A stretch of 64,000 nt of DNA from Desulfomonilia bacterium (GTDB lineage: Bacteria; Desulfobacterota; Desulfomonilia; UBA1062). Positions 1 through 32,037 of this stretch are shown here, piece after piece. The notes under the pieces were generated by a model, which searched no databases, was not told the origin of the DNA, and saw only the letters and a list, made by a program, of their open reading frames with translations. Within the stretch, counting starts at the first letter, position 1, and each line of letters begins with the position of its first letter. Where the stretch lies: positions 17,150-81,149 of the forward strand of contig JBNGDS010000004.1 of the NCBI GenBank assembly GCA_049975365.1, given 5' to 3'. The translations under genes and the position numbers were made by a program.

Positions 1-1642
1 GAGAGTGAAGGTTATCCAGGCGATACCGCCGTACAGGCCCCCTGACATTCGTCTTGAAGAATTCGGCAACCCTGGAAGCAGTGAGCTCTCTGACGATTTC
101 AGGGTACAGTTCCGGTTTGAGTGCGGCAACACCGATGTTGCAGATATCCCCCTTATCACCTGACCGGGCATGGGCAATCCTATACAGAGGAACCTTGACG
201 TGTTTTTTTGACCCCATTGTGTGCGGATCAGGTCCTTCGGGCTGGGTGACAGGATCTCCAGCCTCGCCGGAAGCACACTCGAAGAATTCCTCGGTGTCAT
301 TGAACACCATGCGAGCCTTCACAAGATCTCTCGGGATCAATGCAGGCCAGAACCCGAAGGCCGGGACCACGTCCGGACGGCCACCCATGACCGTCACACC
401 GGGAGGGCCGGCGAGTATCAGACCGGAAAGTTCCCTGCTCATGACCTCTAGAGGTTTCTTGTCTTCTGCACGGGCAGCGAATCTCAGGATGATCTCGTTG
501 GGTTCAACCTTCGGGGCTGCGGATTCACCCCAGCAGGAATTGTACCCTACGAAGTCGGTGCGATGCTCGATAAAATCTCCCGATACCCTGTCCCAGAACA
601 TCTCGGCAAACTTTTTCCCTTTGGCCACGACATCAGGCCCGCTGAGCACCAGGGGGGCTATCACCTTAAATCCTGCTTCATACGTCACGGAGACCTTGAG
701 ATATGGTGTGGGCTTCTGGCCTCGGGCGTTTTTCACGAGCACCCTGTCTTTCCCGACGTCTTCCAGGGAAAACGAGGTAAAATCCGCAATGACATCAGGG
801 CAGATGTAGACCTGAGGATCGCCGATCTCGTAGAGGAGCTGCTCCTTTGCAGTCCTTGTGCTCACAAGACCGCCAGTTCCGGGGTGCTTGGTAAGGACGA
901 ACGACCCGTCGCCATGCATCTCTACGAGGGGGTAGCCCATGTTGTGATAGCTTTCGATTTCTCTCCACAGGGTGTAGTTGCCCCCGGTGGACTGTGTTCC
1001 GCACTCCACGAGGTGGCCGGCGACCAGGGCCGAGGCAAGCCTGTCGTAGTCTCCCCACATCCATCCGAACTCATGGGCGAATGCAGCAACCACTCCTGCA
1101 GCGTCATAGGTCCGCCCTGTAATGACAATGCGGGCTCCCTTTTCAAGAGCGGCGACAATGGGATGTGCACCGATATAGGCATTTGCAGAGATGACCTTGT
1201 CGATCATGGGGCCAAGGGATTCACCGGTATCCTGGTGGGTAAATTCACACTCGTTCTCGTGCAGTTCTTTCAGTCTCGGCATCAGATCATCACCGTCGAC
1301 GATTGCAACCGGGAGACGAATACCTTTCTCTTCCATCACCGCCTCGAGGGCGCGGGCGCACCCCACTGGGTTTATCCCCCCTGCATTGGCGATGACGGAT
1401 ATGTCGTGGTCGGCAATATATGACAGCAGCCTGCCCATGGCTGAGACGAAATCCCGTGCATATCCTGCTTCAGGATTCTTGGCCTTCTGGCGAGCCAGGA
1501 TGATCATGGTGATCTCGGCGAGGTAGTCCATAGTCAGGTAGTCGATAGGCCCCCCCTTGACCTGCCGTTCTATCGCCGCCAGTTCATCGCCCCAGAAGCC
1601 GCTCGCGTTTGCTACGATTATGGTTTCCTTGTTCCTTCTCAT
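1..1642 (-). CDS. AtuA-like (acyclic terpene utilisation family, DUF1446-type N-domain) protein; C-terminal end lies beyond window start
   Basis: Absent from the ORF track because it has no stop inside the window. My own minus-strand translation from ATG (complement of 1640-1642, GGAG RBS 8 nt upstream) gives MRRNKETIIVANASGFWGDELAAIERQVKGGPIDYLTMDYLAEITMIILARQ..., the hallmark N-terminus of DUF1446/AtuA proteins. Plus-strand ORFs 54-809 and 563-1423 are shadows of it. Confidence 0.65.
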   Translation of the reverse strand, partial: MRRNKETIIVANASGFWGDELAAIERQVKGGPIDYLTMDYLAEITMIILARQKAKNPEAGYARDFVSAMGRLLSYIADHDISVIANAGGINPVGCARALEAVMEEKGIRLPVAIVDGDDLMPRLKELHENECEFTHQDTGESLGPMIDKVISANAYIGAHPIVAALEKGARIVITGRTYDAAGVVAAFAHEFGWMWGDYDRLASALVAGHLVECGTQSTGGNYTLWREIESYHNMGYPLVEMHGDGSFVLTKHPGTGGLVSTRTAKEQLLYEIGDPQVYICPDVIADFTSFSLEDVGKDRVLVKNARGQKPTPYLKVSVTYEAGFKVIAPLVLSGPDVVAKGKKFAEMFWDRVSGDFIEHRTDFVGYNSCWGESAAPKVEPNEIILRFAARAEDKKPLEVMSRELSGLILAGPPGVTVMGGRPDVVPAFGFWPALIPRDLVKARMVFNDTEEFFECASGEAGDPVTQPEGPDPHTMGSKKHVKVPLYRIAHARSGDKGDICNIGVAALKPELYPEIVRELTASRVAEFFKTNVRGPVRRYRLDNLHS

Positions 1643-1776
1643 CTGTGGAATCTCCTTGTCCAGAGTGCCTTGTCGTGAATATCATGGAACCATGGGAGAT
1701 CAGTATCTCCCGGTACACGATCCGTTCTGCCGTTTCCTTCCGTTGCAATCGGCCTTCACGGTCCGGCCAGCCGTTC

Positions 1777-3045
1777 TCACTCCTTCTTCAGTTCGGCGAG
1801 GATTTCCTGCGCACGGTCTACCCTGATTTTGCCTTCTTCCACCAGGAGTTTGGCCACTTCGTCGATCAGATCTCCCTCTGCACCAGCCATGACAGCGATA
1901 TTCTTCGCGTGCAATGACATGTGACCCCGCTGAATGCCCTCGGAGGCCAAGGCTCTGAGTGCAGCGAGGTTTTGGCACAGACCAAGGGCAACGATAATCT
2001 CTCCGAGTTCAGTTGCTGTCTGAATGCCGAGGATCTTTTTGGTCAGCTTGGCAAGGGGGTGGAGCGCTGTTGCACCTCCTACTAGGCCCACAGCCATGGG
2101 AAGCTCAAGGGTGCCGGCGAGATTCCCCTCGGGGGTCTTTTCCCACCTGCTCATGGACCGGTACCGGCCTGAGCGGGCAGCATAGCTGTGCGCACCTGCC
2201 TCGATGGCGCGGAAATCATTTCCGGTCGCGATGACAAGAGGGGTGATGCCATTCATGATCCCCTTGTTGTGGGTTGCCGCACGGTGAGGATCCGCATCGG
2301 CAAAAGCCCACGCATAGATAATGCCGTCAACGATGTCATCGGCACCTTTTATGGCATCTTTCATCACCGTGACACGGGCTCTGCACAGGCGTCGGTCGGC
2401 CAGATTGGACAGGATCCTGAGGTAGACCTTCCCGCCGGTAATGTGCTCGATGGTCGGTGCAAGCGCCTCTGCCATTGTATTCACGGCATTGGCCCCCATT
2501 GCATCCCGAACATCAACGAGGAGGTGGGAGATCACCATGGGACCTGCAGCAGTGTCGATCACCCGTACCTCGATGTCCTTCGCCCCACCGCCGATGTCCA
2601 CGAGAACAGGGTCCTGGGCATTTGCAATTTTCAGGATGTCATCCCTGTTTTCCAGGATCTTCAGCCTGGCACCGTAGGGATCGGTCAGCTTCACGGCCTG
2701 GATCTGGGCAATCATGATCGGGCCGGAATTGCTCGTGAAGAATCCCCCGCCGCTGCGCGCCATGCTTGCTGCATTTGAGACACCCGCCACCACCGAAGAT
2801 TCCTCGACCACCAGGGGAATGAGGTACTCCCTGTTGTTGATGATCATGTTGATCACGATCCCGACCGGGATCTGGAACGTGCCCACCACGTTTTCTATCA
2901 TTCTGTCCGCCGTCTGCACGTCCAGGGCCTGCTTCTGGAAGAGGGACACTTCCTCGTCCGTGAGGTCGGCGAACTCCTTGACCTTGCTGAGCCTCTCAGC
3001 AATGCTGAGCTTGTGAAACCCTGATATCCGAGATGATTTTGCCAT
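1777..3045 (-). CDS. mvaA: Hydroxymethylglutaryl-CoA reductase, class II (degradative/NAD(P)H type)
   Basis: 422 aa. The length and global similarity pattern match class II HMGR. GGAGAG RBS upstream of the ATG. Confidence 0.85.
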   Translation of the reverse strand: MAKSSRISGFHKLSIAERLSKVKEFADLTDEEVSLFQKQALDVQTADRMIENVVGTFQIPVGIVINMIINNREYLIPLVVEESSVVAGVSNAASMARSGGGFFTSNSGPIMIAQIQAVKLTDPYGARLKILENRDDILKIANAQDPVLVDIGGGAKDIEVRVIDTAAGPMVISHLLVDVRDAMGANAVNTMAEALAPTIEHITGGKVYLRILSNLADRRLCRARVTVMKDAIKGADDIVDGIIYAWAFADADPHRAATHNKGIMNGITPLVIATGNDFRAIEAGAHSYAARSGRYRSMSRWEKTPEGNLAGTLELPMAVGLVGGATALHPLAKLTKKILGIQTATELGEIIVALGLCQNLAALRALASEGIQRGHMSLHAKNIAVMAGAEGDLIDEVAKLLVEEGKIRVDRAQEILAELKKE

Positions 3046-3100
3046 AGTTCGCTCTCCTTTCTATGTGCTCTCGTTGCACGTATACGTATTCACGAGTGTG

Positions 3101-4417
3101 TTAATCCATGAGATCCGGGAGATACATGATGATCTCCGGGAAGATCATGCACAGGATCAGCCCGAGTGCCTGCAGGAGCACGAAGGGGAATACTCCCCGA
3201 TAGATGTCGCCCATGGTCATGCCCTTGGGAGCCACCCCCTTGAGATAAAAGAGCGTGTACCCGAACGGGGGGGTGATGTAGTCCATCTGTGCGTTCACCA
3301 GGAACAGGATTCCGAACCACACCGGGTCAAACCCGACTGACTGGATAATTGGGAGGAAGATGGGAACACACAGGAGGATGATTCCGATCTCGTCGAGGAA
3401 AAGTCCAAGCACAATGAGAATCAACTGCATGATGATCAAGATGATCCACCTGTTCACTTCAAGCCCGAGGACGAAGTTCTGGATGAGCTCATCACCGCCT
3501 ACGGCGGAGAAGACCGAGATGTAACAGCGAGCCCCGATGGTTATCCAGAGAATCATGGAGGTGACGACCGCTGTGTTGAACACAGATTCCTTGAGCATCT
3601 GCCAGTTGAAGCGTCTGTAGACCATGGCGGATATGATCGCTCCAATGCACCCGACTCCTGCCGCCTCTGTCGGTGTTGCAATCCCGGTATATATGGAACC
3701 GAGCACCCCCAGGATGAGCAGGATTGGGAGAATCACGGTTTTGAATGCAATGACCTTGTCAATGAACGAATATTTCGCCCGTTCTTCCTTGGAAGGTGCA
3801 GGTCCCATTTCGGGCTGAATCCAGCACCGCAGCCCAATGTATACAATGAAGAGACCCGACAGGAGCAGGCCGGGCAGGACCCCCCCGATGAACATCTTGC
3901 CGATGGAGACGCCCGCTGTTACTGCATACACGATGGTGATGACACTCGGAGGGATGAGGATTCCCAGGGTGCCCCCTGCGCAGATGCTGCCTGCGGCCAT
4001 GCCTTTGTCATAGCCGCGGTTGAGCATGGCGGGCAGGGCAAGGATCCCCATGGTGGCCACGGCGGCGCCAACGATTCCTGTCATTGCCGCCATGAGGGTA
4101 CAGATCACGATGGTGCCTATGGCAAGCCCGCCACGCAGGGGGCCGAACCACATCTCCATGAAGCTGAAGAGGTCTTCCACGAGTCCCGAGCGCTCCAGCA
4201 CATTTGCCATAAACACGTACAGCGGAATGGCGACAAAGAAGTAGGAAGTCATTACGCCCCAGGACTGCACGGCGACCAGGAGCATGGAATTCGGACCCCA
4301 CAGAAAATAGGCAAAAAACATTGCAAGCCCGCCCAGAACAAAGGCAAGGGGAAGGCCTGTGGAGAGGAGAATGACCAGGGATGCAAACATGGCAAATACA
4401 GTGAATTCGATACTCAT
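3101..4417 (-). CDS. dctM: TRAP transporter large permease subunit (DctM family)
   Basis: 438 aa polytopic membrane protein with typical DctM sequence. ATGA start/stop overlap with dctQ at 4414-4417. Confidence 0.9.
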   Translation of the reverse strand: MSIEFTVFAMFASLVILLSTGLPLAFVLGGLAMFFAYFLWGPNSMLLVAVQSWGVMTSYFFVAIPLYVFMANVLERSGLVEDLFSFMEMWFGPLRGGLAIGTIVICTLMAAMTGIVGAAVATMGILALPAMLNRGYDKGMAAGSICAGGTLGILIPPSVITIVYAVTAGVSIGKMFIGGVLPGLLLSGLFIVYIGLRCWIQPEMGPAPSKEERAKYSFIDKVIAFKTVILPILLILGVLGSIYTGIATPTEAAGVGCIGAIISAMVYRRFNWQMLKESVFNTAVVTSMILWITIGARCYISVFSAVGGDELIQNFVLGLEVNRWIILIIMQLILIVLGLFLDEIGIILLCVPIFLPIIQSVGFDPVWFGILFLVNAQMDYITPPFGYTLFYLKGVAPKGMTMGDIYRGVFPFVLLQALGLILCMIFPEIIMYLPDLMD

Positions 4418-4929
4418 GATTCCAACTCCCTGTTCGTGACTGCGAGGTGAAAGTCACGGATGAACTTGGCGATTCCCTGGAGGAGGATGAGCCCTGCGGC
4501 GATCGGAATACACAGCTTGATGGGGTAGACTGGCGGTGCCCAGGCAGAGGACAGGGTCTCCCTCACAAGGATAGAATTCCAGGCAAATCTCCACCCGTAG
4601 ACAAGCATGGTATAGATGAAGAAGAAGAATGCCGGCGCTGTGATGAGATCGACAATGGCCCTCCTGCGGGGAGAGAGACGACCATAGAGGATGTCGACAT
4701 TCACATGCTTGCCGATGGCCAGGGTGTAAGCTCCTGCGAGGAGGAAGTACGGGCCATAGAGAAGATAGTTGAACTCAAATGCCCAGATCGTGGGGGAATC
4801 GAAAAAATACCTCATGACGACCTCATACACGGTTGCAATGGTAATCAGGATAATGACAAAGCTCAGGATCTTTGCCACCCACTCATTGATCTTGTCTATG
4901 GTGAATACGATTTTCCGCAACCCTTTCAT
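4414..4929 (-). CDS. dctQ: TRAP transporter small permease subunit (DctQ family)
   Basis: 171 aa protein with 4 TM segments. Translationally coupled to dctM. Confidence 0.8.
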   Translation of the reverse strand: MKGLRKIVFTIDKINEWVAKILSFVIILITIATVYEVVMRYFFDSPTIWAFEFNYLLYGPYFLLAGAYTLAIGKHVNVDILYGRLSPRRRAIVDLITAPAFFFFIYTMLVYGWRFAWNSILVRETLSSAWAPPVYPIKLCIPIAAGLILLQGIAKFIRDFHLAVTNRELES

Positions 4930-5066
4930 GATCTTCTCCCGGGGAGCTGAGTGAATCCGCTCGAAATCATTGTGTAAATAAGTTTGCAGGCTGAATAGGG
5001 GTGCTGTCGTGCACTCCCCCCCTGAATGAGACTATCTCCTGGGACTGAATCGAGAAAAAACCGCTG

Positions 5067-6110
5067 TTAATCGATCAGTCCGAGTTCTTTCATCCATGTC
5101 TTCTGGGAATCGAGAACCTTTCTGGCCTTCTCGCTCTTGTTGCCGTACTCTTCCCACACTTCCATGGCTATCTTCCTGGCCTTACGAACCTCTTCATCAG
5201 GCAGACGTATGATTTCGACTCCTTTCTGCCTGTATTTCGGCAGAGAATTCATGCCATTGATATACTCCTGATGAAAGAGCTCGGAAGATATCTCACGAGC
5301 AGCAGATTCCAGGATGGCCTGGATGTCTTTGGGAAGCTTGTTCCACGCTGCCATGTTGATGGCATAGCAGGTGGACGTAACCGGCTGGTGGAATCCCGGA
5401 AGGATGATGTACTTGGCCACTTCGTACAAACCGGCATCGTAGTTGGCCTGGAGAGACCCTCTGTCAGCGAAGTCGATGACACCCTTTTCAAGGGCGGAGT
5501 AGACTTCTGCCGTGGGTAGCGGAGTGACTGCAGCCCCAATCTTGGCAAGAACCGGCCCGGCCAGACCTACGAACCGGCCTTTCTTTCCCTTGAGATCCTC
5601 AATGCTTCGGATAGGTATTTTCGAGTGGAGAGGTTCTTCAGCGTAGATGGTGGGCGCCAGGTAGTATACACCGAGTGGGGCGTACGATTCGCGCAGCATG
5701 TCCACCCCACCTTTCTCCCAGAACCATATCTCAAGCTGCCATGGATCGGTGAACCCGCAGGGCAGTGACGCTGTGAAGGCAACCTCAGGCATCTTTCCGA
5801 TGTAGTACCCCTCGTACTGCTTCATCATCTCGAACATGCCGGCCTGGATGGCGTCCAGCATCTCGTTGGTGGGCACGAGGGAGCCGGGAGGGAAGATCTT
5901 GATGACAAGACGACCTCCGGTGAGTTCATTCACCCGCGCCACGAACTGCTCTTCCACCTTGTATGGGAGCGTTCCAGGATCCCAGAGAATCTGCATACGC
6001 CAGTTGATCACCTTGTCCGCTGCTGATGAAGGAGCAGGGACGGTCGTCCAGAGAACCCCGAGTGCGATGAAAAGGCATACAATGATTTTTGTGCTTCTAT
6101 GGAACCACAT
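5067..6110 (-). CDS. dctP: TRAP transporter substrate-binding protein (DctP family)
   Basis: 347 aa with signal peptide (MWFHRSTKIIVCLFIALGVLWTTVPAPSSAA) and the DctP-type fold signature. First gene of the dctPQM-mvaA-atuA operon. Confidence 0.85.
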   Translation of the reverse strand: MWFHRSTKIIVCLFIALGVLWTTVPAPSSAADKVINWRMQILWDPGTLPYKVEEQFVARVNELTGGRLVIKIFPPGSLVPTNEMLDAIQAGMFEMMKQYEGYYIGKMPEVAFTASLPCGFTDPWQLEIWFWEKGGVDMLRESYAPLGVYYLAPTIYAEEPLHSKIPIRSIEDLKGKKGRFVGLAGPVLAKIGAAVTPLPTAEVYSALEKGVIDFADRGSLQANYDAGLYEVAKYIILPGFHQPVTSTCYAINMAAWNKLPKDIQAILESAAREISSELFHQEYINGMNSLPKYRQKGVEIIRLPDEEVRKARKIAMEVWEEYGNKSEKARKVLDSQKTWMKELGLID

Positions 6111-6218
6111 GCGTTACCTCCTTCAAGTATTTTCTGGTTCTTTGTTTCTGAACCAGGTTGTTCCGCTTAGGAGAACTCTGTCCTTTCAGACACATTTCCG
6201 TATATTCATTCACGAGGG

Positions 6219-6794
6219 TTATTGCTTTCCGGGTTTTTCAGAATAGATGACAACCAGGACCTTGCTCTCTGTATCACCTATACACTGACCTCGATGGGGC
6301 ACCTCGGAATCGAAGAACACGCAGTCTCCGACATCGAGAACATGGCGCTCGTCGCCGTACCAGAATTCCATGCTTCCCTCCAGGACGAACATCAGCTCCT
6401 GTCCCTCATGGCGAAAGATCGTGCGGTCGTCAGCGTGGGGGATGAGGGTGATGATGAACGGGTTCATGACCTTGTTGTGCTTTTTGTATGCGATGGATTC
6501 ATAGAAATAGCCGAAGATGTTTCCCCGCTGTGCAACGGGCTTCCGCTCTGTACTCCTGACAATGGAACACTTGAGGTTGTTCACCTTGCGCTCCAAAAAG
6601 TCTGCGATCTCAACGTTCAACGCATCGGCTATCTTGCTCAGGGTCGCAATCGGCGGGCTCTGGAGGCCGCGCTCGATCTTCGAGAGATACCCCTTGGTAA
6701 ACCCGGTTCTTACCGAAAGCGTGTCCAGGGTGGTTTTCATGCCCTTTCTGATGGATCGAATCTTCAGACCGATATTTTCATACGTATCGTACAT
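6219..6794 (-). CDS. XRE-family HTH transcriptional regulator with C-terminal cupin domain
   Basis: N-terminal HTH_3 (LKIRSIRKGMKTTLDTLSVRTGFTKGYLSKIERG) and C-terminal cupin (VLEGSMEFWYGDERHVLDVGDCVFFDSEVPHR). The track's first codon is GTG; I place the start at the ATG (MYDTYEN) preceded by GGTGAG. Confidence 0.75.
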   Translation of the reverse strand: MYDTYENIGLKIRSIRKGMKTTLDTLSVRTGFTKGYLSKIERGLQSPPIATLSKIADALNVEIADFLERKVNNLKCSIVRSTERKPVAQRGNIFGYFYESIAYKKHNKVMNPFIITLIPHADDRTIFRHEGQELMFVLEGSMEFWYGDERHVLDVGDCVFFDSEVPHRGQCIGDTESKVLVVIYSEKPGKQ

Positions 6795-7282
6795 TGGATT
6801 CTCACCTGGAGAGAGCACTCACCAGGGACGGGAGTGTAAAATGAAATGAACAGGATATCGATGAAGTATCCAGGTTGTATACGTGTGACACATCCATGGA
6901 ACAATGTCCCCCTCATGGATGAAATATATTTCCTGACAGGAAACAGTATACGAATCAAAATACGGCTGTCAAGATCTCAGGCAATATTTATTAAAATAAT
7001 ATAAACAATATGTTATAATCTCTACAATCCCAATATCCCGTGATGCTTGGGTTTTTCATGGAAAGGAAACAAGGAGTAAGATTCAACCATGTCTGGAAAC
7101 TCTCAGGAACGGTCAGACCCCTAGAGAAACACGATGGCGCAAAGCCTTCACCAAGATTCCTGAATAGTGAATACGGAATGGGAAATATAGGAGAGTTCGC
7201 ATTCACCAAGATACAAAAGAACAGGGAGGCCCTTTGGCGAGAGATGAACATTCCCTGCTCCTACGATGAACGGGAAGCAGGG

Positions 7283-8047
7283 TCATGGAACGTTCTGTGT
7301 TTCCCCTTGAGAGAGAAAGTTCAGAACAGCCTCCTTGTACCTGGGATTCATGAGGGCTGTCAGGTGGTCGCAGCCGGGGATGATCGAGAGTTTTGCACCG
7401 GGGATGGTTCGCGCAAAGCCGTAGGCATCACCGACAACACCATCATCCCGTGCCGAAACAACCAGTACCGGTTTCGTGTTCATCCTGAAATCAGGGGGAT
7501 CGTCTCTATACACACGGCTGATACACGCGCTGAGTGCCATGAGATCGTTCCTGTGAAAGTCGGCGAATTCTCTGAGTGCCCTGATAAACGGGTCGTGGAT
7601 GGAGGTCGCATTCTCAGAAGGCAAGTAAAGCGCGATCATTCGTGCTCGCTCCCTGTAGTCGAGGAGGTGTGCCCCGACACCACCGAGAACCACGGACCGT
7701 ACACGATCAGGGTGTGATACCATGAGGTGTGTGGAGATCCATCCCCCCAGGGAATACCCCATGATGTCGGATGCATCGATGGCGAGGTGGTCCATGAGTG
7801 AGATCACATCGGTTACAATCCTCTCGGGTGCATAGTCCTCGGGTTCATGGAATTTCGTGCTTTCTCCATGGCCTCTCAGGTCAAGGGCAACGACTCTTCT
7901 TCCCGATCTCACCAGGAGTTTGTACCAGGACGTGATCTTCCAGTTTACCGTGCGGTTGCTCGCAAACCCGTGGAGGAGGATGATAGGGTTTCCTCTGCCC
8001 TCGACCTCATAGCCTATGGATGCCTCGTGTGTCAGAAGTGTTGTCAT
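7283..8047 (-). CDS. alpha/beta-fold hydrolase
   Basis: HGFASN oxyanion motif and GYSLGG nucleophile elbow. GAGGATAA RBS. Confidence 0.75.
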   Translation of the reverse strand: MTTLLTHEASIGYEVEGRGNPIILLHGFASNRTVNWKITSWYKLLVRSGRRVVALDLRGHGESTKFHEPEDYAPERIVTDVISLMDHLAIDASDIMGYSLGGWISTHLMVSHPDRVRSVVLGGVGAHLLDYRERARMIALYLPSENATSIHDPFIRALREFADFHRNDLMALSACISRVYRDDPPDFRMNTKPVLVVSARDDGVVGDAYGFARTIPGAKLSIIPGCDHLTALMNPRYKEAVLNFLSQGETQNVP

Positions 8048-8173
8048 GCGCGGTTATCCTCGGGTGCAGGCTGTTACCATGCAATTCCATCCCAGGGCAA
8101 GGGAAAGGGGATCATCCTTCCATGCATCCCTGTCCACGCAGTGAACGCGGGAGAACGACTCTGAGGAAAGGAG

Positions 8174-9364
8174 CTATTTCTTCTCCTGATCGAGGTAGGC
8201 AAGGGCAATCCTGGAGAGCATTGTTGTGCCGATCAAAAGGGCACGTTCGTCAAAGTCAAACCTGGCATTGTGGTGGGGTTCGCAGATCCCCCGTTCGAAG
8301 TTGCCTCCCCCGACGTAGAAATAACTACCCGGGATCCGCTGGAGGTAGAATGACATATCTTCGCTTGCCATGGTCGCTGGTACCTCGAACACCGACTCTG
8401 TTCCGACAACATCCACGGCAATACGCTCCACAAGATCGGTCATACGGGCATCATTCACTGTCACGGGATAGCCTGGAACATACTCGAGTTCAAAATCTCC
8501 CCGCAAACTCTGCGTGATGCCTCCGAGAATCCGTTTCATGCGCTCAGGTATAGTCTTCCTGATCTGTTCGTCGAGGCACCTGACCGTCCCTGTCAACTCG
8601 ACGGTCTCCGCGATCACATTCGATGCCGTGCCGCCATGGAATGTCCCAATGTTGACGATCAATGGAATCAGCGGTGATATCTCCTTCTGGATAAGGGCCT
8701 GGATGTTGATGGCTACGTGTGCAGCGATGGCAATCGCGTCGATTCCGCCTTCCGGCATAGCGGAGTGGCCTCCTTTTCCCTTGATATGTATGGTGAAGGA
8801 ATCCATGGCTGCCATGATGGAGCCGCTGCGGAAGGCGATCATACCTACAGGGATCTGGTTGATGATATGGAGCCCGAACGCTGCATCCACCCTGGGATCC
8901 TCCAGAACCCCGTCGTTGATCATGTATCGGGCCCCGCCAAGGCTTTCCTCGGCAGGCTGGAACACGAATTTCACTGTGCCGGCCAATTCAGATCTGAGCT
9001 CAGCGAGTATTCGCGCGGTGACAAGCAGTATGGCCATGTGGCCGTCGTGACCGCAGGCATGCATGACGCCCTCACGTACCGAGCGGTATTCCGTGAGGTT
9101 CATCTCCTGGATGGGCAGCGCATCCATGTCTGCCCTCAGGAGGACAGTCCTCCCAGCAGGATTTCCCGCAAGAAGTGCCACCACGCCAGTCTTGCCGATC
9201 CCTTCGTGGACCTCGAGACCAAGCCCTTTGAGGTAATCGGAGATGATGCCAGCGGATCTCCTCTCTTCGAACCCCAGTTCCGGATGTCTGTGGAAATCAC
9301 GCCGGAGACGTATGAGTTCATCCTCGTAATGAGAAACCCTCTTTCCGATGTCGGCAACGGTCAT
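8174..9364 (-). CDS. M20D-family amidohydrolase (N-acyl-amino-acid/hippurate hydrolase-like)
   Basis: 396 aa. Metal-ligand motifs of the M20 peptidase family (HACGHDGH ... GGHSAMP). Confidence 0.85.
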   Translation of the reverse strand: MTVADIGKRVSHYEDELIRLRRDFHRHPELGFEERRSAGIISDYLKGLGLEVHEGIGKTGVVALLAGNPAGRTVLLRADMDALPIQEMNLTEYRSVREGVMHACGHDGHMAILLVTARILAELRSELAGTVKFVFQPAEESLGGARYMINDGVLEDPRVDAAFGLHIINQIPVGMIAFRSGSIMAAMDSFTIHIKGKGGHSAMPEGGIDAIAIAAHVAINIQALIQKEISPLIPLIVNIGTFHGGTASNVIAETVELTGTVRCLDEQIRKTIPERMKRILGGITQSLRGDFELEYVPGYPVTVNDARMTDLVERIAVDVVGTESVFEVPATMASEDMSFYLQRIPGSYFYVGGGNFERGICEPHHNARFDFDERALLIGTTMLSRIALAYLDQEKK

Positions 9365-9498
9365 TCATTCACCTCTTCCCTGACAACCATACCTGTTTGA
9401 CGCTGAAGATGAAAGGGGAAACAGGAGGAGAAAAGAGTGAACACCTTGGCACGACCGGGAGTGCATATTATTATGGTCCATAGACAGAGGGGGTATCT

Positions 9499-10479
9499 AT
9501 GGGACTGAAAGTTCTCTCGCTTGCACCACTTCCCGGTGACCTGGTCAAGCTCCTGATTCAGCAGACACAGGGCGTACCTGATTTTGAGGTGGTAAGCGGT
9601 CATGAATTGGAGGACGGGGATCTTCTCAGGGCTGTATCCGAGGCAGATGTTGTGCTTGGAGACTACACGTTCAACAAGAAGATCACTGCAGATATCGTGA
9701 ATGCCGCCGGCAGGCTCAAAATGATCCAGCAGCCGAGCGTCGGGTATCAGCACATCGACGTTGATGCATGCACGCTCAAAGGAATCAGGGTTGCCAATAC
9801 AGCCGGCGCGAACACCGTGAGCGTTGCTGAGCATACCATCGCATGGGCACTCTGCCTCCTGAAGAATCTCTTTTTTGCTCACACGAGCACCAAACTGGGA
9901 GGGTGGGAGCAGATGAATGTCAAGCCAGTGGAGCTCAAGGGCAAGATCTGGGGTATCGTGGGATTTGGAAGGATCGGCCAGGCCCTTGCAGCCAGGCTGA
10001 GACCGTTTGAACTTGAGCGAATTCTCTACTATGACATCATCAGGCAGCCCAGAAACATGGAAGAAGAACTCGATGCAACCTTCTGCGAGTTGCCAGACCT
10101 TTTACAGCTCTCTGATATTGTGAGCCTCCATGCCCCCCTTACAGAGACAACACGGTGCATGATCGATGAGCATGCGTTTCACGCCATGAAGCCCACCGCT
10201 TACCTCATCAATGTCGCCAGGGCTGAGCTCGTGGATGAAGAAGCACTCGCCAGGGCGATCATGGCCAAGACGATAGCCGGTGCAGGCATCGATGTGTTTT
10301 CCGAAGAACCTGTGCGCTTGTACAATCCACTTCTCGATGTGGAGAGCGACAAGTTTCTGCTCTCTCCACACACTGCAGGAGTGAGTGACGAAGCAGCTGG
10401 ACGGATCATCAACATGGCAACAGCCAATATTGCGAAGGTGCTCAAGGGTGAAGAGCCGGATTCTCTCGTCAATCCTTGA
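9499..10479 (+). CDS. D-isomer-specific 2-hydroxyacid dehydrogenase family protein (NAD-binding)
   Basis: GxGxxG Rossmann motif (GIVGFGRIGQALAARL) and catalytic R/E/H pattern. GAGGGGG RBS. Confidence 0.85.
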   Translation: MGLKVLSLAPLPGDLVKLLIQQTQGVPDFEVVSGHELEDGDLLRAVSEADVVLGDYTFNKKITADIVNAAGRLKMIQQPSVGYQHIDVDACTLKGIRVANTAGANTVSVAEHTIAWALCLLKNLFFAHTSTKLGGWEQMNVKPVELKGKIWGIVGFGRIGQALAARLRPFELERILYYDIIRQPRNMEEELDATFCELPDLLQLSDIVSLHAPLTETTRCMIDEHAFHAMKPTAYLINVARAELVDEEALARAIMAKTIAGAGIDVFSEEPVRLYNPLLDVESDKFLLSPHTAGVSDEAAGRIINMATANIAKVLKGEEPDSLVNP

Positions 10480-10547
10480 GGGTGAGCCTGCATTGGCACA
10501 TGCCGATCCGGGAGATGTTTTGACCGAAAGGGTGTGAAGGAGGATGT

Positions 10548-12089
10548 ATGAATGGAGCAGAGCTCCTGGTGAAAACAGCTCTTCAGGCAGGGGTGAGGCA
10601 CTGTTTTGCAAACCCGGGCACTACCGAGCTCCCCCTTGTCGTTGCCCTGGACACGGTTCCGGGCATGAAGGCAGTGTTAGGGCTTTTCGAAGGCGTGTGC
10701 ACGGGTGCCGCGGACGGATACGCGCGTATGCTGGACAGACCTGCAATGGTGCTGCTGCACCTCGGGCCTGGACTGTCAAATGGATTGTCGAATCTCCACA
10801 ACGCACGACGGGCTTCGAGCCCGGTCTTGAACGTGGTGGGCGAGCACGCGACATGGCACAGGATCCTTGACCCGCCCCTCGCCATGGATATCGAGTCACT
10901 GGCAAACACAGTCTCTTCCTGGCAGAGAACCTGCACAAAGACGGATGAAATTGCCATAGACACTGCTGATGCGATTTCTGCGGCACTGATGGGCAAGGTA
11001 GCAACGCTCATTATCCCTTATGACCTCCAGTTGAAGACATCCACGGCCAGTGAACCGGCGACAACGATCCCCGCCAGTGATCCGGTTGAGACGGGCCCGA
11101 TAAACACTGCAGCAACACTCTTGAAAAGCGGAAAGAAATGCGCACTTGTTCTTGGTGGCACAGCACTGAGAGAAAAAGCCCTGTTCCACGCAGCACGAAT
11201 CAGGACAGGGGTAGGCTGCGACCTCCTTGCAGAGAATTTTCCTGCCCGTATGGAGAGGGGGGCGGGCCTGCCCGATCTCATCCGCATCCCGTACCTTCCT
11301 GAGATGGCTCTTGACATGCTTTCGCGCTATGAAGTGTTTATCTTTGCAGGTGCACGAGAACCAATATCGTTCTTCGGCTATGAGGGAATTCCCGGTCCAC
11401 TGCTGAGGGACAACCAGAAGAGGCTCCGCATCGATCATGGCCGGCATGACATGGAAGATGTGCTCCAGGCGCTTGCAGAAGCAGTTTCAGCCCCACACTC
11501 TCCGGCAAAGGTTCACCTCGCACCCTTGAAAAGGCCTGAAATCCCCTCCGGTGAACTCACAGGTGACAAGATCTGTTCCGTGATTGCTGCCCTGCAGACA
11601 GACAACGCCATCGTCGTGGAAGAGGCGATCACGAACTCTCTCATGTACTATCCCCTCAGTTCAGGAGCACCCCCACACAGCCTGCTCACGCTCACCGGTG
11701 GATCTCTCGGGCAGGGACCTCCCTGTGCTGTGGGTGCGGCATTCGCGTGCCCGGACAGACATGTCATCAGTTATCAGGCGGACGGTGCGACACTGTATAC
11801 ACTCCAGGCCCTGGGAACCCAGGCAAAAGAATCTTTGAACGTGATCACCCTGGTGTGTGCAAACAACAGGTATGATATCCTGAAGCTGGAGATGACCAGG
11901 CTGGGCGTGTTCGAACCTGCTGTGAATTCAGCACATCTCATGGACCTTGGAAGGGTTGACTGGGTGAAGATTGGAGAGGGTTTCGGCATCCCGTCCGTTT
12001 CGGTCAGGACGGCTGAAGACCTTGCACGAGAATTCAAGCGATCCCTGGAGGCCCAGGGGCCGAATCTCATCGAGATGGTTCTGTATTAG
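10548..12089 (+). CDS. Thiamine-pyrophosphate-dependent enzyme (acetolactate synthase/sulfoacetaldehyde acetyltransferase-like)
   Basis: 513 aa with N-terminal TPP_enzyme_N (CFANPGTTELP) and C-terminal TPP-binding GSLGQG...N motif. Confidence 0.8.
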   Translation: MNGAELLVKTALQAGVRHCFANPGTTELPLVVALDTVPGMKAVLGLFEGVCTGAADGYARMLDRPAMVLLHLGPGLSNGLSNLHNARRASSPVLNVVGEHATWHRILDPPLAMDIESLANTVSSWQRTCTKTDEIAIDTADAISAALMGKVATLIIPYDLQLKTSTASEPATTIPASDPVETGPINTAATLLKSGKKCALVLGGTALREKALFHAARIRTGVGCDLLAENFPARMERGAGLPDLIRIPYLPEMALDMLSRYEVFIFAGAREPISFFGYEGIPGPLLRDNQKRLRIDHGRHDMEDVLQALAEAVSAPHSPAKVHLAPLKRPEIPSGELTGDKICSVIAALQTDNAIVVEEAITNSLMYYPLSSGAPPHSLLTLTGGSLGQGPPCAVGAAFACPDRHVISYQADGATLYTLQALGTQAKESLNVITLVCANNRYDILKLEMTRLGVFEPAVNSAHLMDLGRVDWVKIGEGFGIPSVSVRTAEDLAREFKRSLEAQGPNLIEMVLY

Positions 12090-12251
12090 CGTATCAGGAC
12101 ACAGCTGAACATGGAAGATTTTCGGTCTTGGCTCACACGGAGGCAGGTCATCAGGAAGGGAAGGGATCTCTTCATGAGCATGGCCTTCGTTTCGGTCTTT
12201 CCCATTCGAATCATGGCGTCTTCAAGGAACGAAAAATCCAAGGAGGATGGA

Positions 12252-12848
12252 ATGAAACTCCCAGATCCCAGGATAGACGGGTCCATTTCAGTGGAAAAGG
12301 CGATAAAAGACCGGAGAACCGTTCGGTGGTTCTCCGGGAAGGAAATCCGTGCCCAACAGCTTTCCCAGATTCTCTGGGCTGCGCAGGGCATCACCGATGA
12401 CGCAGGATTCAAGCGGGCAGCTCCCTCTGCTGGAGCTCTCTATCCCATGGACCTGTACACAGTTGTGGGGACCGGGTGTGTAGAAGGGTTCAGCCAGGGA
12501 CTCTATCACTATGAACCAAGGAGTCATGTCCTCTCGCTTGCACTCGGCGGCGATCACCGCGATGAGCTTGCCAGGGCATCACTCTCGCAGACATGGATGG
12601 CGAAAGCGCCTGTCAATATAGTCATCTGTGCCGAGTATGAACGCATCACCCCCAAGTATGGATCGCGAGGGGAGCGATATGCGATGATCGAGGCGGGACA
12701 TATTGCTCAGAATATCTTTCTTCAAGCCCAGGCGCTGGAACTCGAAGCAGGAATCGTGGGTGCATTCAACGATGATGACGTCATCCGGGTCATGAGGATC
12801 AAACCGACCCACAGGCCGCTGCTCATCATGCCCATCGGGTATCGATAA
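12252..12848 (+). CDS. SagB-type dehydrogenase / nitroreductase-superfamily protein
   Basis: Start moved to the ATG after AGGAGG (MKLPDPRIDG...). The RRTVRWF motif and the PSAGALYP signature are typical of the SagB/ThcOx branch. Confidence 0.7.
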   Translation: MKLPDPRIDGSISVEKAIKDRRTVRWFSGKEIRAQQLSQILWAAQGITDDAGFKRAAPSAGALYPMDLYTVVGTGCVEGFSQGLYHYEPRSHVLSLALGGDHRDELARASLSQTWMAKAPVNIVICAEYERITPKYGSRGERYAMIEAGHIAQNIFLQAQALELEAGIVGAFNDDDVIRVMRIKPTHRPLLIMPIGYR

Positions 12849-25106: not shown

Positions 25107-26057
25107 TTATAGTGTTTTATACTTGATGCGGGAGCGGGAGCGAGAAAAAAACAGGGACCATCCTGTCTTCAGGGACCCGGGAACCAGCGAGAACGCACCA
25201 GATGCCTCTGCAACAGGGGTGAATCCACACAGTGAACAGTCCATATTTCCACGACCCCTGACATAACACCCCTGGTCTATGGATCCGTCCGGGTTGACAT
25301 TTGCCAGCAGCCAGTCGTGGCATGTCCAGTGACCGGTCATCATGGCATTGAGGCTCCATGCAGAGTTCATGATGGGGTACCCTGACCGTTTCAGATTCAT
25401 GACAGACATCAGTGCCTGCCTCCTGTCATCAGTGCTCAGGGTCAGGTCGTCTTCACCCTGCCCATAGGGGTAGAATATCTGCACGGTGATTCCTTTTACA
25501 GCAGTCAGTGAGAGCATTGTGGTCGCACACTCACCGAACTCCCTCCAATTGAGCCTGTTCAGGGTATAGTGGACCAAGAGGTTCGGATGCCGGCAGGAGG
25601 AGATTTCGTGAAGAACACGCTGGTAGGAATTGCTTCTCAGAAAATTGTGGGTGTCCTCCAGCCCATCAACGCTCACCCACAAGATGTCGGCGGGCACATC
25701 GAATCCGAGGGTTCCGTTCGTTGTCGCCCCCACACAGGGGAACAATTCGCGTGCCGAGGTGACGAGATCACGGAACGTGTGGTCCCCATCCGACCACAGA
25801 AAGGGCTCACCCCCCTCAAAGATCACGATAAGACACCCTCTTTTCTTGAGCTCACGCAGTGATCTCATGGCAGTTTCCCAGTCAATGTGCGAATGTATCT
25901 CAGACGATCGCGTGTGGAACGGGCAGGCCCTGCAGGAAAGATTGCACCGGTAGGTCAGCTTGAAGCTTGCAATCAGGGGGATCTTGTGCCCCAGAATCCT
26001 GGTTCGTACGGAAAACCAGGCAAGATCGGTGAGCGATGTCAGGAAGCCTCGGGCCAC
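25107..26057 (-). CDS. Radical SAM protein with C-terminal SPASM/twitch-like Cys cluster
   Basis: CNLSCRAC (CxxxCxxC) near the N-terminus. C-terminal GCYVRGRGNMDCSLCGF. Overlaps the upstream CoA-ligase gene by 19 nt. Confidence 0.75.
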   Translation of the reverse strand: MARGFLTSLTDLAWFSVRTRILGHKIPLIASFKLTYRCNLSCRACPFHTRSSEIHSHIDWETAMRSLRELKKRGCLIVIFEGGEPFLWSDGDHTFRDLVTSARELFPCVGATTNGTLGFDVPADILWVSVDGLEDTHNFLRSNSYQRVLHEISSCRHPNLLVHYTLNRLNWREFGECATTMLSLTAVKGITVQIFYPYGQGEDDLTLSTDDRRQALMSVMNLKRSGYPIMNSAWSLNAMMTGHWTCHDWLLANVNPDGSIDQGCYVRGRGNMDCSLCGFTPVAEASGAFSLVPGSLKTGWSLFFSRSRSRIKYKTL

Positions 26058-27538
26058 GCCAGGCTGTTCTCCATTCCACGGATGAGGTGCTGATAGCCAA
26101 CCACCTTTGCCAGGGCGTGGACAGCCCGGTCCGGAGACGGGTAGGGCATGATCCCGTGTGCATCGAGGAACTGCACTGGATTCCCGTCCATGACAACGTC
26201 GAACCCCATGATGTCGATAACCGGGATAATGGGCCTCTCGTACCTGCGGATCAGGTCCACGATGAGCTCGAAAAGCTTTCTCTCTTCAGAGATCATGATG
26301 TCTGCAAATTCCTTCACAGCATCGGTTGGGATAGCCTCCGATTTCAGCCACGTTCGTGCGCGGAGAGACATGTACCCAAGTCCCATCAGGAACACAGCAT
26401 CCGTGAGAGAATTCTCCATGAGAATTTGTACAGCGTCTGTGATGACGCTCACCCGGCCTGGTGCCACGAGATCGATGGGATTCCCCCTGCTCCAGTAGGC
26501 AGGAAGGATCCTGTCAAGCATCTCGATAACAGGTTTTTCAAGGGGTTCGACAGAGAGGCCCTCGTGGATGCACATATCCGTGGCGATGACCCCCCAGCCG
26601 CCCCCCAGAGTGATGATTCCGACCTTGTTGCCCGTGGGCCGTGGCTGCATGAACATGCCGGCCACGTCCACCATTTCATCCATGGTTTCCACCTGGATGA
26701 TCCCAGCCTGGCGGCACATGGATGTGAAGATCTCGTCACTGCCGGCTATTGCGCCGGTATGGGACATGGCAGCTACTGCCCCCCTGTCTGTTCTGCCTCC
26801 CTTGATGAGGATGATGGGCTTTCGTGGGGAAATTCTCCGTGCCGCTTCAAAGAATCTCCTGGGCTGCCGCAGTCCCTCGACATACAGACAAATGACCCGT
26901 GTTTTCTCGTCGTGCTCGAGGTATTCCAGGAAATCTTCGGTGGTGAGGTCGGCCTCGTTGCCCGAGCTGATGAGGCGGCTGATGCCTATTCTCCTGCGCA
27001 GAAAGCGGTATGATATGGACGTCCCCAGGTTTCCGCTCTGGACAATGAGGCCGATACCGCCGGGTGTCAGCTGCATGGAGCCCATGAGAGCGTGCATGAT
27101 TGAAGGGTACGCGCTGAAGACCCCCATGGTGTTCGGCCCGATAAGGCGCATACCGCCTGACCGTGCCAATTCCACGATCTCACGCTCCCTGCGCGCTCCC
27201 TTCTCTCCTGTCTCGGAAAATCCTGCGGTAATGATGATTCCCGCAGGGATCTTCTTCTGGATGCACTCTTTGATGGTTTCGAGAACCAGGGAATCCTTCA
27301 CAACAATGACGGCGAGATCGATGTGGTTCTCGATCTCATCGAGGCTGGTGTACATCTTTTTTCCAAACCAGTCGCCGCCTCTGGGGTTGATGGGGTAGAG
27401 GTCTCCTGAATAGCCCCGCTTCACGATGTGGTGGAGGACATTGAACCCCCATTTGAAAATATCCTTCGAAGCCCCGATAAACGCGATGGATTTCGGTTCA
27501 AACAGGGGCCTCAACTCTGAGGTGCTCTTCATGGTCAA
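26039..27538 (-). CDS. ADP-forming acyl-CoA synthetase alpha-like (CoA-binding + succinyl-CoA-synthetase-like domains)
   Basis: 499 aa with N-terminal CoA-binding Rossmann (KSIAFIGASKD...YPINPRG) and a central ligase-CoA domain. No beta (ATP-grasp) partner seen nearby. Confidence 0.7.
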   Translation of the reverse strand: MTMKSTSELRPLFEPKSIAFIGASKDIFKWGFNVLHHIVKRGYSGDLYPINPRGGDWFGKKMYTSLDEIENHIDLAVIVVKDSLVLETIKECIQKKIPAGIIITAGFSETGEKGARREREIVELARSGGMRLIGPNTMGVFSAYPSIMHALMGSMQLTPGGIGLIVQSGNLGTSISYRFLRRRIGISRLISSGNEADLTTEDFLEYLEHDEKTRVICLYVEGLRQPRRFFEAARRISPRKPIILIKGGRTDRGAVAAMSHTGAIAGSDEIFTSMCRQAGIIQVETMDEMVDVAGMFMQPRPTGNKVGIITLGGGWGVIATDMCIHEGLSVEPLEKPVIEMLDRILPAYWSRGNPIDLVAPGRVSVITDAVQILMENSLTDAVFLMGLGYMSLRARTWLKSEAIPTDAVKEFADIMISEERKLFELIVDLIRRYERPIIPVIDIMGFDVVMDGNPVQFLDAHGIMPYPSPDRAVHALAKVVGYQHLIRGMENSLAWPEAS

Positions 27539-29340: not shown

Positions 29341-29351
29341 GCTGTCTCTCC

Positions 29352-30878: not shown

Positions 30879-30888
30879 GTTCAGTCGT

Positions 30889-32022: not shown

Positions 32023-32037
32023 AGCTACGTTCTCCCC

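Follow-up and report, generated by a model that had tools for sequence, protein, structure and literature searches.

A Desulfomonilia operon proposed for mevalonate uptake and catabolism, with an AtuA-family protein as candidate HMG-CoA-cleaving lyase

For growth on mevalonate, Pseudomonas mevalonii reverses the HMG-CoA reductase (HMGR) reaction with NAD+ (PMC13412983). In its mvaAB operon, a class II, NAD-type HMGR gene is directly followed by mvaB, which encodes a lyase of the HMGL family. The AtuA proteins of the atuABCDEFGH clusters in Pseudomonas and Thauera carry the domains PF07287 and PF23544 in a long fused form of ~590-615 aa, and have tentatively been assigned as HIHG-CoA:acetate lyases, converting HIHG-CoA to a 3-oxoacyl-CoA and acetate. 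LiuE of P. aeruginosa is also reported to act as a lyase on HIHG-CoA, and this has left the role of AtuA uncertain. Two relatives of AtuA are described as C-C lyases. CmlAB from Raoultella planticola (PDB 9ERQ, 9EVF) splits citramalate, a tertiary 3-hydroxy acid, into pyruvate and acetate, and was crystallised with ADP. ThnQ/ThnS, from the anaerobic naphthalene degradation of culture N47, takes as substrate a CoA ester bearing a tertiary hydroxyl group and cleaves the bond adjoining the free carboxyl to give a 3-oxoacyl-CoA, namely 3-oxoazeloyl-CoA (data cited as unpublished). The earlier description of AtuA as a protein of unknown function is therefore too simple.

In a Desulfomonilia MAG (Thermodesulfobacteriota), we analyzed a window of 64 kb (the whole stretch of DNA considered here), where six co-directional genes encode an XRE-cupin regulator, the DctP, DctQ and DctM subunits of a TRAP transporter, a class II HMGR and an AtuA-family protein (Table 1). 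The likeness with mvaAB lies in the class II NAD-type HMGR with a gene in the lyase position directly after it, and in the proposed flow from mevalonate through HMG-CoA to C2/C4 units. On the other hand, the lyase position is occupied by an AtuA-family gene instead of mvaB, the operon includes its own TRAP transporter and XRE-cupin regulator, the HMGR falls in another well-supported clade, and the host comes from a strict-anaerobe lineage. We suggest that this operon is probably a self-contained system for mevalonate uptake and catabolism, with HMG-CoA being cleaved by an AtuA-type lyase. The six-gene operon itself had been recognized in the initial annotation and is confirmed. All six genes were found by profile on the minus strand, an orientation absent from that annotation, and the set is conserved elsewhere.

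Table 1. Coordinates within the window, strand and profile scores of the operon genes and the putative promoter.
Feature	Coordinates	Strand	Details
Putative sigma-70-like promoter	6945..6972	-	TTGACA-16 nt-TATACT; consensus match at 11/12 hexamer positions
XRE-cupin regulator	6219..6818	-	199 aa from GTG at 6818; HTH_3 44.9 bits, Cupin_2 57.9 bits
DctP, TRAP solute-binding protein	5067..6110	-	347 aa; PF03480 152 bits
DctQ, TRAP small membrane subunit	4414..4929	-	171 aa; PF04290 96.5 bits
DctM, TRAP large permease	3101..4417	-	438 aa; PF06808 286.7 bits; TIGR00786 338.6 bits (cut-off 268)
Class II HMGR, NAD-type	1777..3045	-	422 aa; PF00368 359.9 bits (cut-off 27); TIGR00532 477.2 bits (cut-off 259.95)
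AtuA-family gene, long form	2..1642	-	PF07287 486.7 bits (cut-off 22.8); PF23544 45.9 bits (cut-off 27)

Recurrences of the gene set come from metagenomes, once in identical order (L091) and several times rearranged as XRE-HMGR-DctPQM-AtuA (L004/L092, L093 and L164), which indicates that the arrangement is not due to chance. In three sister operons, the lyase slot is filled by a canonical HMG-CoA lyase (HMGL) and not by AtuA. L172 has the order XRE-cupin-DctP-DctQ-DctM-HMGR-HMGL, being the window order with HMGL in the AtuA slot, L170 is organized as XRE-cupin-HMGR-HMGL-DctPQM, and L081, from Breoghania, as DctPQM-HMGR-HMGL. With NF004283, the lyases of L172 and L170 score 415 and 378 bits, above the cut-off of 246, and both loci are close to the window in their HMGRs (66-70% identity) and DctPs (60-69%). 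Moreover, the HMGR tree places L170, with 200/200 support, nested among operons linked to AtuA. From the identical operon position in these three loci, HMGL is likely the functional equivalent of AtuA, although this HMGL-like TIM-barrel enzyme (LiuE/MvaB) has no sequence or fold relationship to it.

The two families were never found together. HMGL homologues are absent from all 57 AtuA loci with usable flanks and from the 64-kb window, and the HMGR loci with HMGL had no AtuA. This exchange recurs in a CoA-transferase/MaoC context, where L006 (CoA-transferase-TRAP-MaoC x2-AtuA) is mirrored by the Pseudomonas locus L087 (HMGR-HMGL-CoA-transferase-MaoC x2), with HMGL replacing AtuA. AtuA is also present in carboxyltransferase-AtuA-enoyl-CoA hydratase clusters (L008, L095-L097). 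The AtuAs of L006 and of these clusters are orthologues with at least 60% identity, and in the AtuA tree they branch intermingled with those linked to HMGR. It is plausible that HMG-CoA is the common product of the HMGR, CoA-transferase/MaoC and carboxylase/hydratase routes. With AtuA at the HMGL position of near-identical operons, its long-unclear function becomes directly testable.

The AtuA-family gene crosses the window start, so that 547 of ~592 residues are visible and the C-terminus is cut, but the Pfam cut-offs are passed despite the incomplete PF23544 domain. In the protein, a body resembling CmlA is fused with a ferredoxin-like C-terminal domain that resembles CmlB. Its profile matches the CmlA of 9ERQ/9EVF with E = 5.8e-11, and the AF2 model (pLDDT 91.7) of P0001, which is 84% identical to the window protein, matches 9evf_A in Foldseek with E = 6e-22 and TM 0.74, while the C-terminal domain of the model matches 9evf_B with TM 0.71. 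CmlAB, small subunit included, was the only solved structure matched by this fold. Orthology with CmlAB was rejected, given an identity of ~16% and no methylaspartase or glutamate mutase genes in the window, and we treat it as a homologue only. In addition, CmlAB has two subunits instead of a fused protein, uses a free dicarboxylic acid rather than a CoA ester, and works in glutamate fermentation, whose mal/glm genes are absent in the window. ThnQ/ThnS, an AtuA-family lyase of an anaerobic sulfate reducer, differs from the window protein by its two subunits, its cyclic C9 substrate and a large beta-oxidation-like thn operon.

The domain composition and the fused form are those of the atu cluster protein, but the geranyl-CoA carboxylase, hydratase and dehydrogenase genes are absent beside the window AtuA. 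No carboxyltransferase or acyl-CoA dehydrogenase homologue was found near it, and the only ECH of the window is 26 kb away. With an HMGR as the upstream enzyme, one would expect the methyl compound HMG-CoA as substrate. We propose that the window AtuA is an HMG-CoA-cleaving lyase, considering its homology with CmlAB, the published descriptions of its relatives and the displacement observed in gene context. As CmlAB was solved as an ADP complex, proteins of this family may require a nucleotide.

The window HMGR scores 495 bits against the P. mevalonii enzyme (1QAX). In P. mevalonii numbering, the catalytic Glu83, Lys267, Asp283 and His381 and the HMG-binding Arg261, Asn271 and Ser85 are all kept, and each is conserved across 90 or more of the 93 sequences in the alignment. 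Asp146, which we take from P. mevalonii mutagenesis to determine the NAD(H) preference, is present at the aligned position. The initial annotation had noted that mvaA-type class II HMGRs are catabolic in some bacteria and had pointed to a phylogeny as a check. The class II assignment holds, but similarity to P. mevalonii alone does not prove a degradative role, since archaeal, presumably biosynthetic, class II enzymes are closer (61-64% identity) than that of P. mevalonii (57%), and catabolic and biosynthetic HMGRs cannot be told apart by raw identity. In the neighbour-joining tree, the window HMGR falls outside the P. mevalonii/Delftia/Burkholderia clade (200/200), in a separate clade supported by 196-199/200, whose placement as sister to a second TRAP-linked clade has ~50-64% bootstrap. 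All members of the window clade share linkage with this XRE-cupin regulator and this TRAP subfamily, and none is accompanied by HMG-CoA synthase or thiolase.

The three TRAP subunits are encoded consecutively, with the end of dctQ overlapping the start of dctM by 4 nt, and the N-terminus of DctP is signal-like. The best solved relative of DctP is the calcium-lactate-binding protein TTHA0766 from Thermus thermophilus (PDB 2ZZV; 244 bits, 38.6% identity). By sequence, DctP is in the monocarboxylate (lactate/keto-acid) branch, with TTHA0766 and the TakP-like keto-acid binders as nearest known systems, and not in the C4-dicarboxylate branch. A conserved arginine, shared with TTHA0766, lies in the segment 'KGKKGRF', which aligns with 'KGVKLRV' of TTHA0766. 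The arginine of this K-x-R-x-P region is presumably the carboxylate-binding residue of DctP-type proteins (SiaP, TakP). The HMGR-linked DctPs, 51-77% identical to that of the window, form one clade that excludes TTHA0766. All 14 examined loci with this DctP subfamily also contain HMGR, among them those of three homologues looked up in addition, each adjoining HMGR. Wherever the genes around a DctP relative with 50% identity or more were read, HMGR was a neighbor. Having their own clade and HMGR as constant neighbor, these DctPs probably have a ligand other than lactate, and we propose the window DctP as a putative mevalonate-binding subunit.

In the proposed pathway, periplasmic DctP would bind (R)-mevalonate, a hydroxy-monocarboxylate, and DctQM would import it. 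The HMGR, with its family and active site established and its direction taken from gene context, would work oxidatively as in P. mevalonii, converting mevalonate, CoA and 2 NAD+ to (S)-HMG-CoA. Since HMG-CoA would be obtained directly, a separate CoA ligase or transferase is unnecessary. The AtuA-family protein would then cleave HMG-CoA, a role held by the HMG-CoA lyase (MvaB/LiuE) in the sister operons. By analogy with the chemistry published or suggested for AtuA, ThnQS and CmlAB, it would break the bond adjoining the free carboxymethyl arm, and the products would probably be acetoacetyl-CoA and acetate, in contrast to the acetyl-CoA and acetoacetate produced by HMGL; nothing in the pathway is less certain than this regiochemistry. 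Acetoacetyl-CoA would then yield two acetyl-CoA through a thiolase encoded elsewhere.

Mevalonate could also be catabolized with a canonical HMGL, encoded elsewhere in the genome, as the HMG-CoA lyase. AtuA would then be accessory or act downstream, for instance in a nucleotide-dependent step on acetoacetate, acetate or another tertiary-alcohol acid. We give this a small but real chance. TRAP and HMGR occur without an adjacent lyase in L171 and in loci from alphaproteobacteria and Saprospiraceae (L052, L063 and L073), which indicates that the lyase can be encoded elsewhere and that adjacency of AtuA need not mean replacement. Furthermore, the sole solved relative, at ~16% identity, contains ADP and uses a free acid. 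However, an accessory function does not account easily for AtuA and HMGL sharing one slot and never occurring together, for HMGL-bearing HMGR loci devoid of AtuA, for the repetition of the exchange between L006 and L087, or for AtuA holding the lyase position in carboxylase/hydratase clusters too. These observations favor AtuA itself as the lyase.

The substrate could instead be a related 3-hydroxy-3-alkyl-5-hydroxy acid, such as a terpenoid-derived homologue, with the HMGR-like enzyme and AtuA acting on a longer analogue. For the namesake AtuA, the assigned substrate is the isohexenyl homologue of HMG-CoA, and ThnQS accepts a bulky cyclic substrate. Even so, we consider a longer substrate improbable, because all checked HMG/mevalonate-contacting and catalytic residues of the P. 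mevalonii HMGR are conserved, the same HMGR and TRAP are paired in sister operons with an HMG-CoA lyase-family enzyme above the NCBIfam cut-off, and neither the window nor the related loci contain acyl-CoA dehydrogenase or beta-oxidation genes for a longer product. A biosynthetic role, in which the HMGR would make or salvage mevalonate for isoprenoids and have functionally unrelated neighbors, is highly improbable, despite the closeness of the enzyme to its archaeal counterparts and its ~56-58% identity with Chloroflexi HMGRs neighboring HMG-CoA synthase and thiolase. HMG-CoA synthase, archaeal-type thiolase and DUF35 homologues were found neither in the 64-kb window nor in any locus of the window HMGR clade, and no domain of GHMP-type (mevalonate) kinases was revealed by the Pfam scan of the large ORFs of the window. 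TRAP systems work as importers, a lyase, be it AtuA or HMGL, belongs to the conserved gene set, and Thermodesulfobacteriota normally use the MEP route. A check for mevalonate-pathway genes other than HMGR, indicated in the initial annotation, found none within the window. Its preference for a catabolic mevalonate/HMG module over isoprenoid biosynthesis is thus supported by the HMGR clade context, the sister operons with HMGL and the DctP branch.

The first gene of the operon has a PuuR-like architecture, with an N-terminal HTH_3 and a C-terminal Cupin_2, and its probable start is an ATG at 6794, inside the ORF that opens with GTG. Position 6794 is also where the initial annotation had ended the operon. 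PuuR itself was ruled out, as the PuuR equivalog model gives 40 bits against a cut-off of 211. Orthologues with 47-56% identity open the same clusters in eight loci (L091, L092, L093, L164, L170, L171, L172 and L082). We presume that this protein is the effector-sensing regulator of the operon, and it would respond to the substrate. From the regulator to AtuA, the intergenic gaps are 108, 137, -4 (overlap), 55 and 134 nt, and no minus-strand terminator-like match was found between the operon genes, all of them being within coding sequence. The putative sigma-70-like site, a strong match to the consensus, lies upstream of the regulator gene, in an AT-rich spacer of 465 nt that separates this gene from an unrelated alpha/beta-hydrolase gene.

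Six co-directional genes occupy positions 1-6818 of the window, as the initial annotation had correctly described, leaving only their strand (minus) unstated. From the regulator to the AtuA-family gene they are separated by 108, 137, -4, 55 and 134 nt, and no convincing terminators were found between the six. The AtuA gene runs past the start of the window, with 547 of approximately 592 residues visible. A near-consensus sigma-70-like site lies within the AT-rich spacer of 465 nt between the regulator gene and an alpha/beta-hydrolase gene; in both spacers upstream, an operator search by inverted repeats returned short, unconvincing pairs only. When metagenomes were scanned with the AtuA protein, the identical order XRE-DctP-DctQ-DctM-HMGR-AtuA (HMGR, HMG-CoA reductase) was found in locus L091, whose AtuA is 79% identical, and the order XRE-HMGR-DctPQM-AtuA in L092 (of the L004 contig type), L093 and L164, with AtuA proteins 65-69% identical. 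The six-gene set is conserved, and we reject an accidental grouping. For the missing end of the AtuA gene and the region beyond it, relatives served as a guide: AtuA is followed by a convergent redoxin gene in L001/L090 (84% identical) and, about 200 nt on, by an unrelated ACT-domain gene in L091, so the operon ends at AtuA. Membership of the alpha/beta-hydrolase and the neighboring M20 amidohydrolase in the module, e.g. as a mevalonolactonase, was considered and is not supported. Both are missing from all related loci except for a weak M20 match in L010 (90 bits), and the spacer with the promoter-like site divides them from the operon.

Features of the operon and of the remaining window, with supporting matches
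Feature	Coordinates	Strand	Evidence or remark
AtuA-family gene	1642..2	minus	PF07287 486.7 bits; PF23544 45.9 bits
Class II HMG-CoA reductase	3045..1777	minus	PF00368 359.9 bits; TIGR00532 477 vs cut-off 260
dctM	4417..3101	minus	PF06808 286.7 bits
dctQ	4929..4414	minus	PF04290 96.5 bits
dctP	6110..5067	minus	PF03480 152 bits
XRE-HTH + cupin regulator	6818..6219, probable ATG 6794	minus	HTH_3 44.9 bits; Cupin_2 57.9 bits
Sigma-70-like site	6972..6945	minus	TTGACA-16-TATACT, near-consensus (sequence match)
Alpha/beta-hydrolase, PcaD-like	7283-8047	minus	
M20 amidohydrolase	8174-9364	minus	
D-2-hydroxyacid dehydrogenase	9499-10479	plus	
ThDP enzyme	10548-12089	plus	PRK07586, 644 bits
Nitroreductase	12111-12848	plus	
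Radical-SAM gene	25107-26057	minus	
ADP-forming acyl-CoA synthetase-like gene	26039-27538	minus	
Enoyl-CoA hydratase	27535-28368	minus	
BcrAD/BadFG ATPase	28525-29340	minus	
HGD-D gene pair	29352-32022	minus	
CbiA/ParA-like ATPase	32038-32808	minus	
CdhC-like protein	32801-33538	minus	
BcrAD/BadFG ATPase	33556-34341	minus	
BcrAD/BadFG ATPase	34346-35125	minus	
HGD-D gene pair	35728-38282	minus	
tRNA gene	47815-47886	plus	Sole Rfam hit (gathering threshold) across the 64 kb

The Pseudomonas mevalonii HMGR (1QAX) aligns with the window enzyme at 495 bits. Residues E83, K267, D283, H381, R261, N271 and S85 are retained, as is the NAD-preference residue D146, and nothing in the sequence suggests altered chemistry. 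We rejected this likeness as proof of a degradative role, since archaeal and Chloroflexi enzymes from biosynthetic contexts are equally or more similar and similarity alone cannot show degradation. The window HMGR is 57% identical to that of P. mevalonii and 61-64% to archaeal enzymes. Its best 80 genome matches share just 54-64% identity and include many archaea, as well as Chloroflexi where HMGR adjoins HMG-CoA synthase, thiolase and a DUF35-type protein. Archaea account for most of its closest relatives in the genome collection, which hints at an old inter-domain transfer of the gene. Gene context mapped on the tree is more informative than similarity. In a neighbor-joining tree with 200 bootstraps, the window HMGR falls in a clade (196-199/200) where XRE-cupin and TRAP genes adjoin HMGR in every member. 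The P. mevalonii/Delftia enzymes (200/200) lie outside this clade, as do the synthase-linked Chloroflexi and archaeal groups. The sister of the window clade is a clade (200/200) of alphaproteobacterial and Saprospiraceae HMGRs linked to TRAP genes, to a divergent MocR-type regulator or to both, with only moderate support for the sister relationship of the two TRAP-linked clades (99-128/200). In many proteobacteria of the genome scan (L010-L089), a divergently transcribed MocR-type regulator (GntR + aminotransferase-fold) replaces the XRE-cupin protein beside HMGR.

The closest solved relative of DctP is the Thermus calcium-lactate binder TTHA0766 (244 bits, 38.6% identity), followed by keto-acid and pyruvate binders, with no C4-dicarboxylate binder among the solved relatives. 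The DctPs adjoining HMGR form one clade that leaves TTHA0766 outside; identity to the window protein is 66-77% for those in its own clade and 51-53% for those of Azospirillum, Tistlia, Breoghania and Saprospiraceae. In a reverse test starting from DctP, three homologues (60-69% identity) were picked from contigs outside the AtuA matches, and HMGR adjoins all three; eight further contigs are apparently common to the DctP and AtuA match lists. The binding protein thus appears to belong to a subfamily dedicated to the substrate of HMGR. Mevalonate, a hydroxy-monocarboxylate, would fit the branch of DctP as a putative ligand. The lactate contacts of TTHA0766 (Tyr80 and Asp444, biosensor numbering) are uninformative on specificity, because their mapping on DctP is ambiguous and the candidate residues are in any case conserved. 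We found no relevant literature linking a TRAP transporter to mevalonate. The locus nominates a candidate mevalonate-binding TRAP protein, which would be of use both in engineering, as a transporter, and as the scaffold of a biosensor, a role in which the lactate-binding TTHA0766 already serves.

The key result is that AtuA and canonical HMG-CoA lyase (HMGL, LiuE/MvaB type) swap positions between equivalent operons. L172, from a Thermodesulfobacteriota MAG, has the gene order of the window with HMGL in the last place (XRE-cupin-DctP-DctQ-DctM-HMGR-HMGL), and L170 has XRE-cupin-HMGR-HMGL-DctPQM. Both lyases (415 and 378 bits, respectively) are above the NCBIfam NF004283 cut-off of 246, and the accompanying HMGRs are 66-70% identical to that of the window. 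The HMGR tree nests L170 among the AtuA-linked L004, L093 and L164, with 200/200 support. The order DctPQM-HMGR-HMGL is also found in Breoghania (L081). A second context exists in both forms, with AtuA in L006 (CoA-transferase-DctPQM-MaoC x2-AtuA) and with HMGL in Pseudomonas nabeulensis L087 (HMGR-HMGL-CoA-transferase-MaoC x2-Tct). In a third one, carboxyltransferase-AtuA-enoyl-CoA hydratase (L008, L095-L097 and about 20 more distant loci), the layout is that of liu/atu clusters, with AtuA at the position expected for the lyase. No HMGL homologue was found in any of the 57 AtuA loci with usable flanks. Members linked to HMGR, to CoA-transferase/MaoC and to carboxylase/enoyl-CoA hydratase interleave within the AtuA orthogroup (≥60% identity), and all three upstream routes could plausibly lead to HMG-CoA or a close homologue. 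The exchange is a natural swap experiment across otherwise equivalent operons; it singles out one purchasable compound, HMG-CoA, as the likely substrate, and a simple assay with it would address function and regiochemistry.

AtuA/DUF1446 is a large family (E ≤ 1e-20 for 7,829 of the 8,000 candidates scored); ever since the first description of the atu cluster, its part in terpene and leucine-type catabolism has been assigned tentatively. The family profile matches PDB 9ERQ/9EVF, the Raoultella citramalate lyase CmlAB (E = 5.8e-11), named by its depositors "AtuA family protein / citramalate lyase subunit A". The AlphaFold model of a relative 84% identical to the window protein (pLDDT 91.7) aligns with 9evf_A (E = 6e-22, TM 0.74), and its C-terminal domain with the small subunit 9evf_B (TM 0.71). 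CmlAB aside, the fold search of this model gave no meaningful match; aspartokinase and ACT-domain hits were discarded, with TM of about 0.2 or covering the small ferredoxin-like domain only. Because the model matches both subunits and nothing else, the window protein is a fused CmlA+CmlB-like enzyme. CmlAB converts citramalate directly to pyruvate and acetate, according to a preprint, and AtuA has tentatively been listed as a HIHG-CoA:acetate lyase. The bond broken by CmlAB, by ThnQS (an AtuA-like lyase of anaerobic naphthalene degradation) and in the AtuA case joins the tertiary carbinol carbon to the carbon alpha to a free carboxylate. By analogy, cleavage of HMG-CoA by AtuA is predicted to yield acetoacetyl-CoA and acetate, whereas the products of HMGL are acetyl-CoA and acetoacetate. 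The only solved AtuA-family enzyme, 9EVF, is a "citramalate lyase - ADP - pyruvate complex". A nucleotide is unexpected in a lyase, and this ADP could reflect an acyl-phosphate-type mechanism or allosteric control; a nucleotide may be involved in the action of AtuA as well. Our literature searches returned nothing relevant on AtuA with citramalate lyase, and none linking AtuA to HMGR.

In the pathway that we propose, mevalonate would be taken up via DctPQM, and HMGR, its family and active site being established, would presumably run in the oxidative direction, oxidizing and thioesterifying it unaided. AtuA would then split HMG-CoA, as displacement, homology and the literature suggest, and the XRE-cupin protein would control the operon. 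No CoA ligase would be required, and the product would reach central metabolism via thiolase. The logic is shared with mvaAB, but the window module brings its own transporter and regulator, and its proposed lyase is non-homologous. The main rival holds that AtuA is an accessory protein and the lyase is encoded elsewhere. It agrees with L171, L052, L063 and L073, which are missing an adjacent lyase, but we consider it unlikely given the exchange of AtuA and HMGL. Within the 64-kb window, no HMG-CoA synthase, archaeal-type thiolase or HMGL-like gene was found, and Pfam scans of its large ORFs revealed no GHMP-type (mevalonate) kinase domain.

In a bolder reading, to which we give somewhat less than even odds, AtuA-family proteins would be HMG-CoA lyases of a second class, structurally unrelated to the first, cutting on the free-carboxyl side to acetoacetyl-CoA and acetate, possibly with a nucleotide cofactor. 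Such enzymes would take the place of LiuE/MvaB in many anaerobes, in mevalonate operons as well as in carboxylase-hydratase clusters of the leucine/isovalerate type. On this reading, DctPQM would be the first mevalonate-specific uptake system to be identified, and anaerobic Thermodesulfobacteriota would scavenge environmental mevalonate. The locus also suggests a use of mevalonate as substrate in anoxic habitats. Above all, it makes the function of AtuA and a candidate mevalonate-binding protein directly testable.

Other HMGR clusters were met in the scans. In L017 (6607-11263, Sporomusaceae UBA7701) and L010 (5394-12264, Eubacteriaceae MGYG-HGUT-00063), genes for the large and small subunits of aconitase X are directly upstream of HMGR, accompanied by a short-form AtuA in the former, by an M20 peptidase and HMGL in the latter, and by a sigma-54 activator in both. 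The aconitase X family includes the archaeal mevalonate-5-phosphate dehydratase, and these clusters may represent a different mevalonate-related route. In L168, HMGR occurs with a short AtuA and a small subunit encoded separately. The P. nabeulensis cluster (L087, 8863-15065) has HMGR, HMGL, CoA-transferase III, two MaoC, TctB-like and TctA genes in one string, mirroring the AtuA-containing L006, which suggests that mevalonate and a C6 dicarboxylate, e.g. 3-methylglutaconate or HMG, are handled by one cluster.

Desulfomonilia is a class of Thermodesulfobacteriota, and the remaining content of the window, including the HGD-D, BcrAD/BadFG, CdhC-like, acyl-CoA dehydrogenase and ADP-forming acyl-CoA synthetase-like genes, fits a strict anaerobe. 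The neighboring genes at 7283-12848 are not conserved alongside the operon in relatives. Between about 47.9 and 54.1 kb there is a single ORF of at least 230 aa (49097-49807), without Pfam match. The minus-strand cluster at 25107-43913 contains two HGD-D gene pairs (2-hydroxyacyl-CoA dehydratase / benzoyl-CoA reductase-like), a TetR gene and two acyl-CoA dehydrogenases, and looks like a pathway of reductive dearomatization or 2-hydroxyacyl-CoA dehydration.
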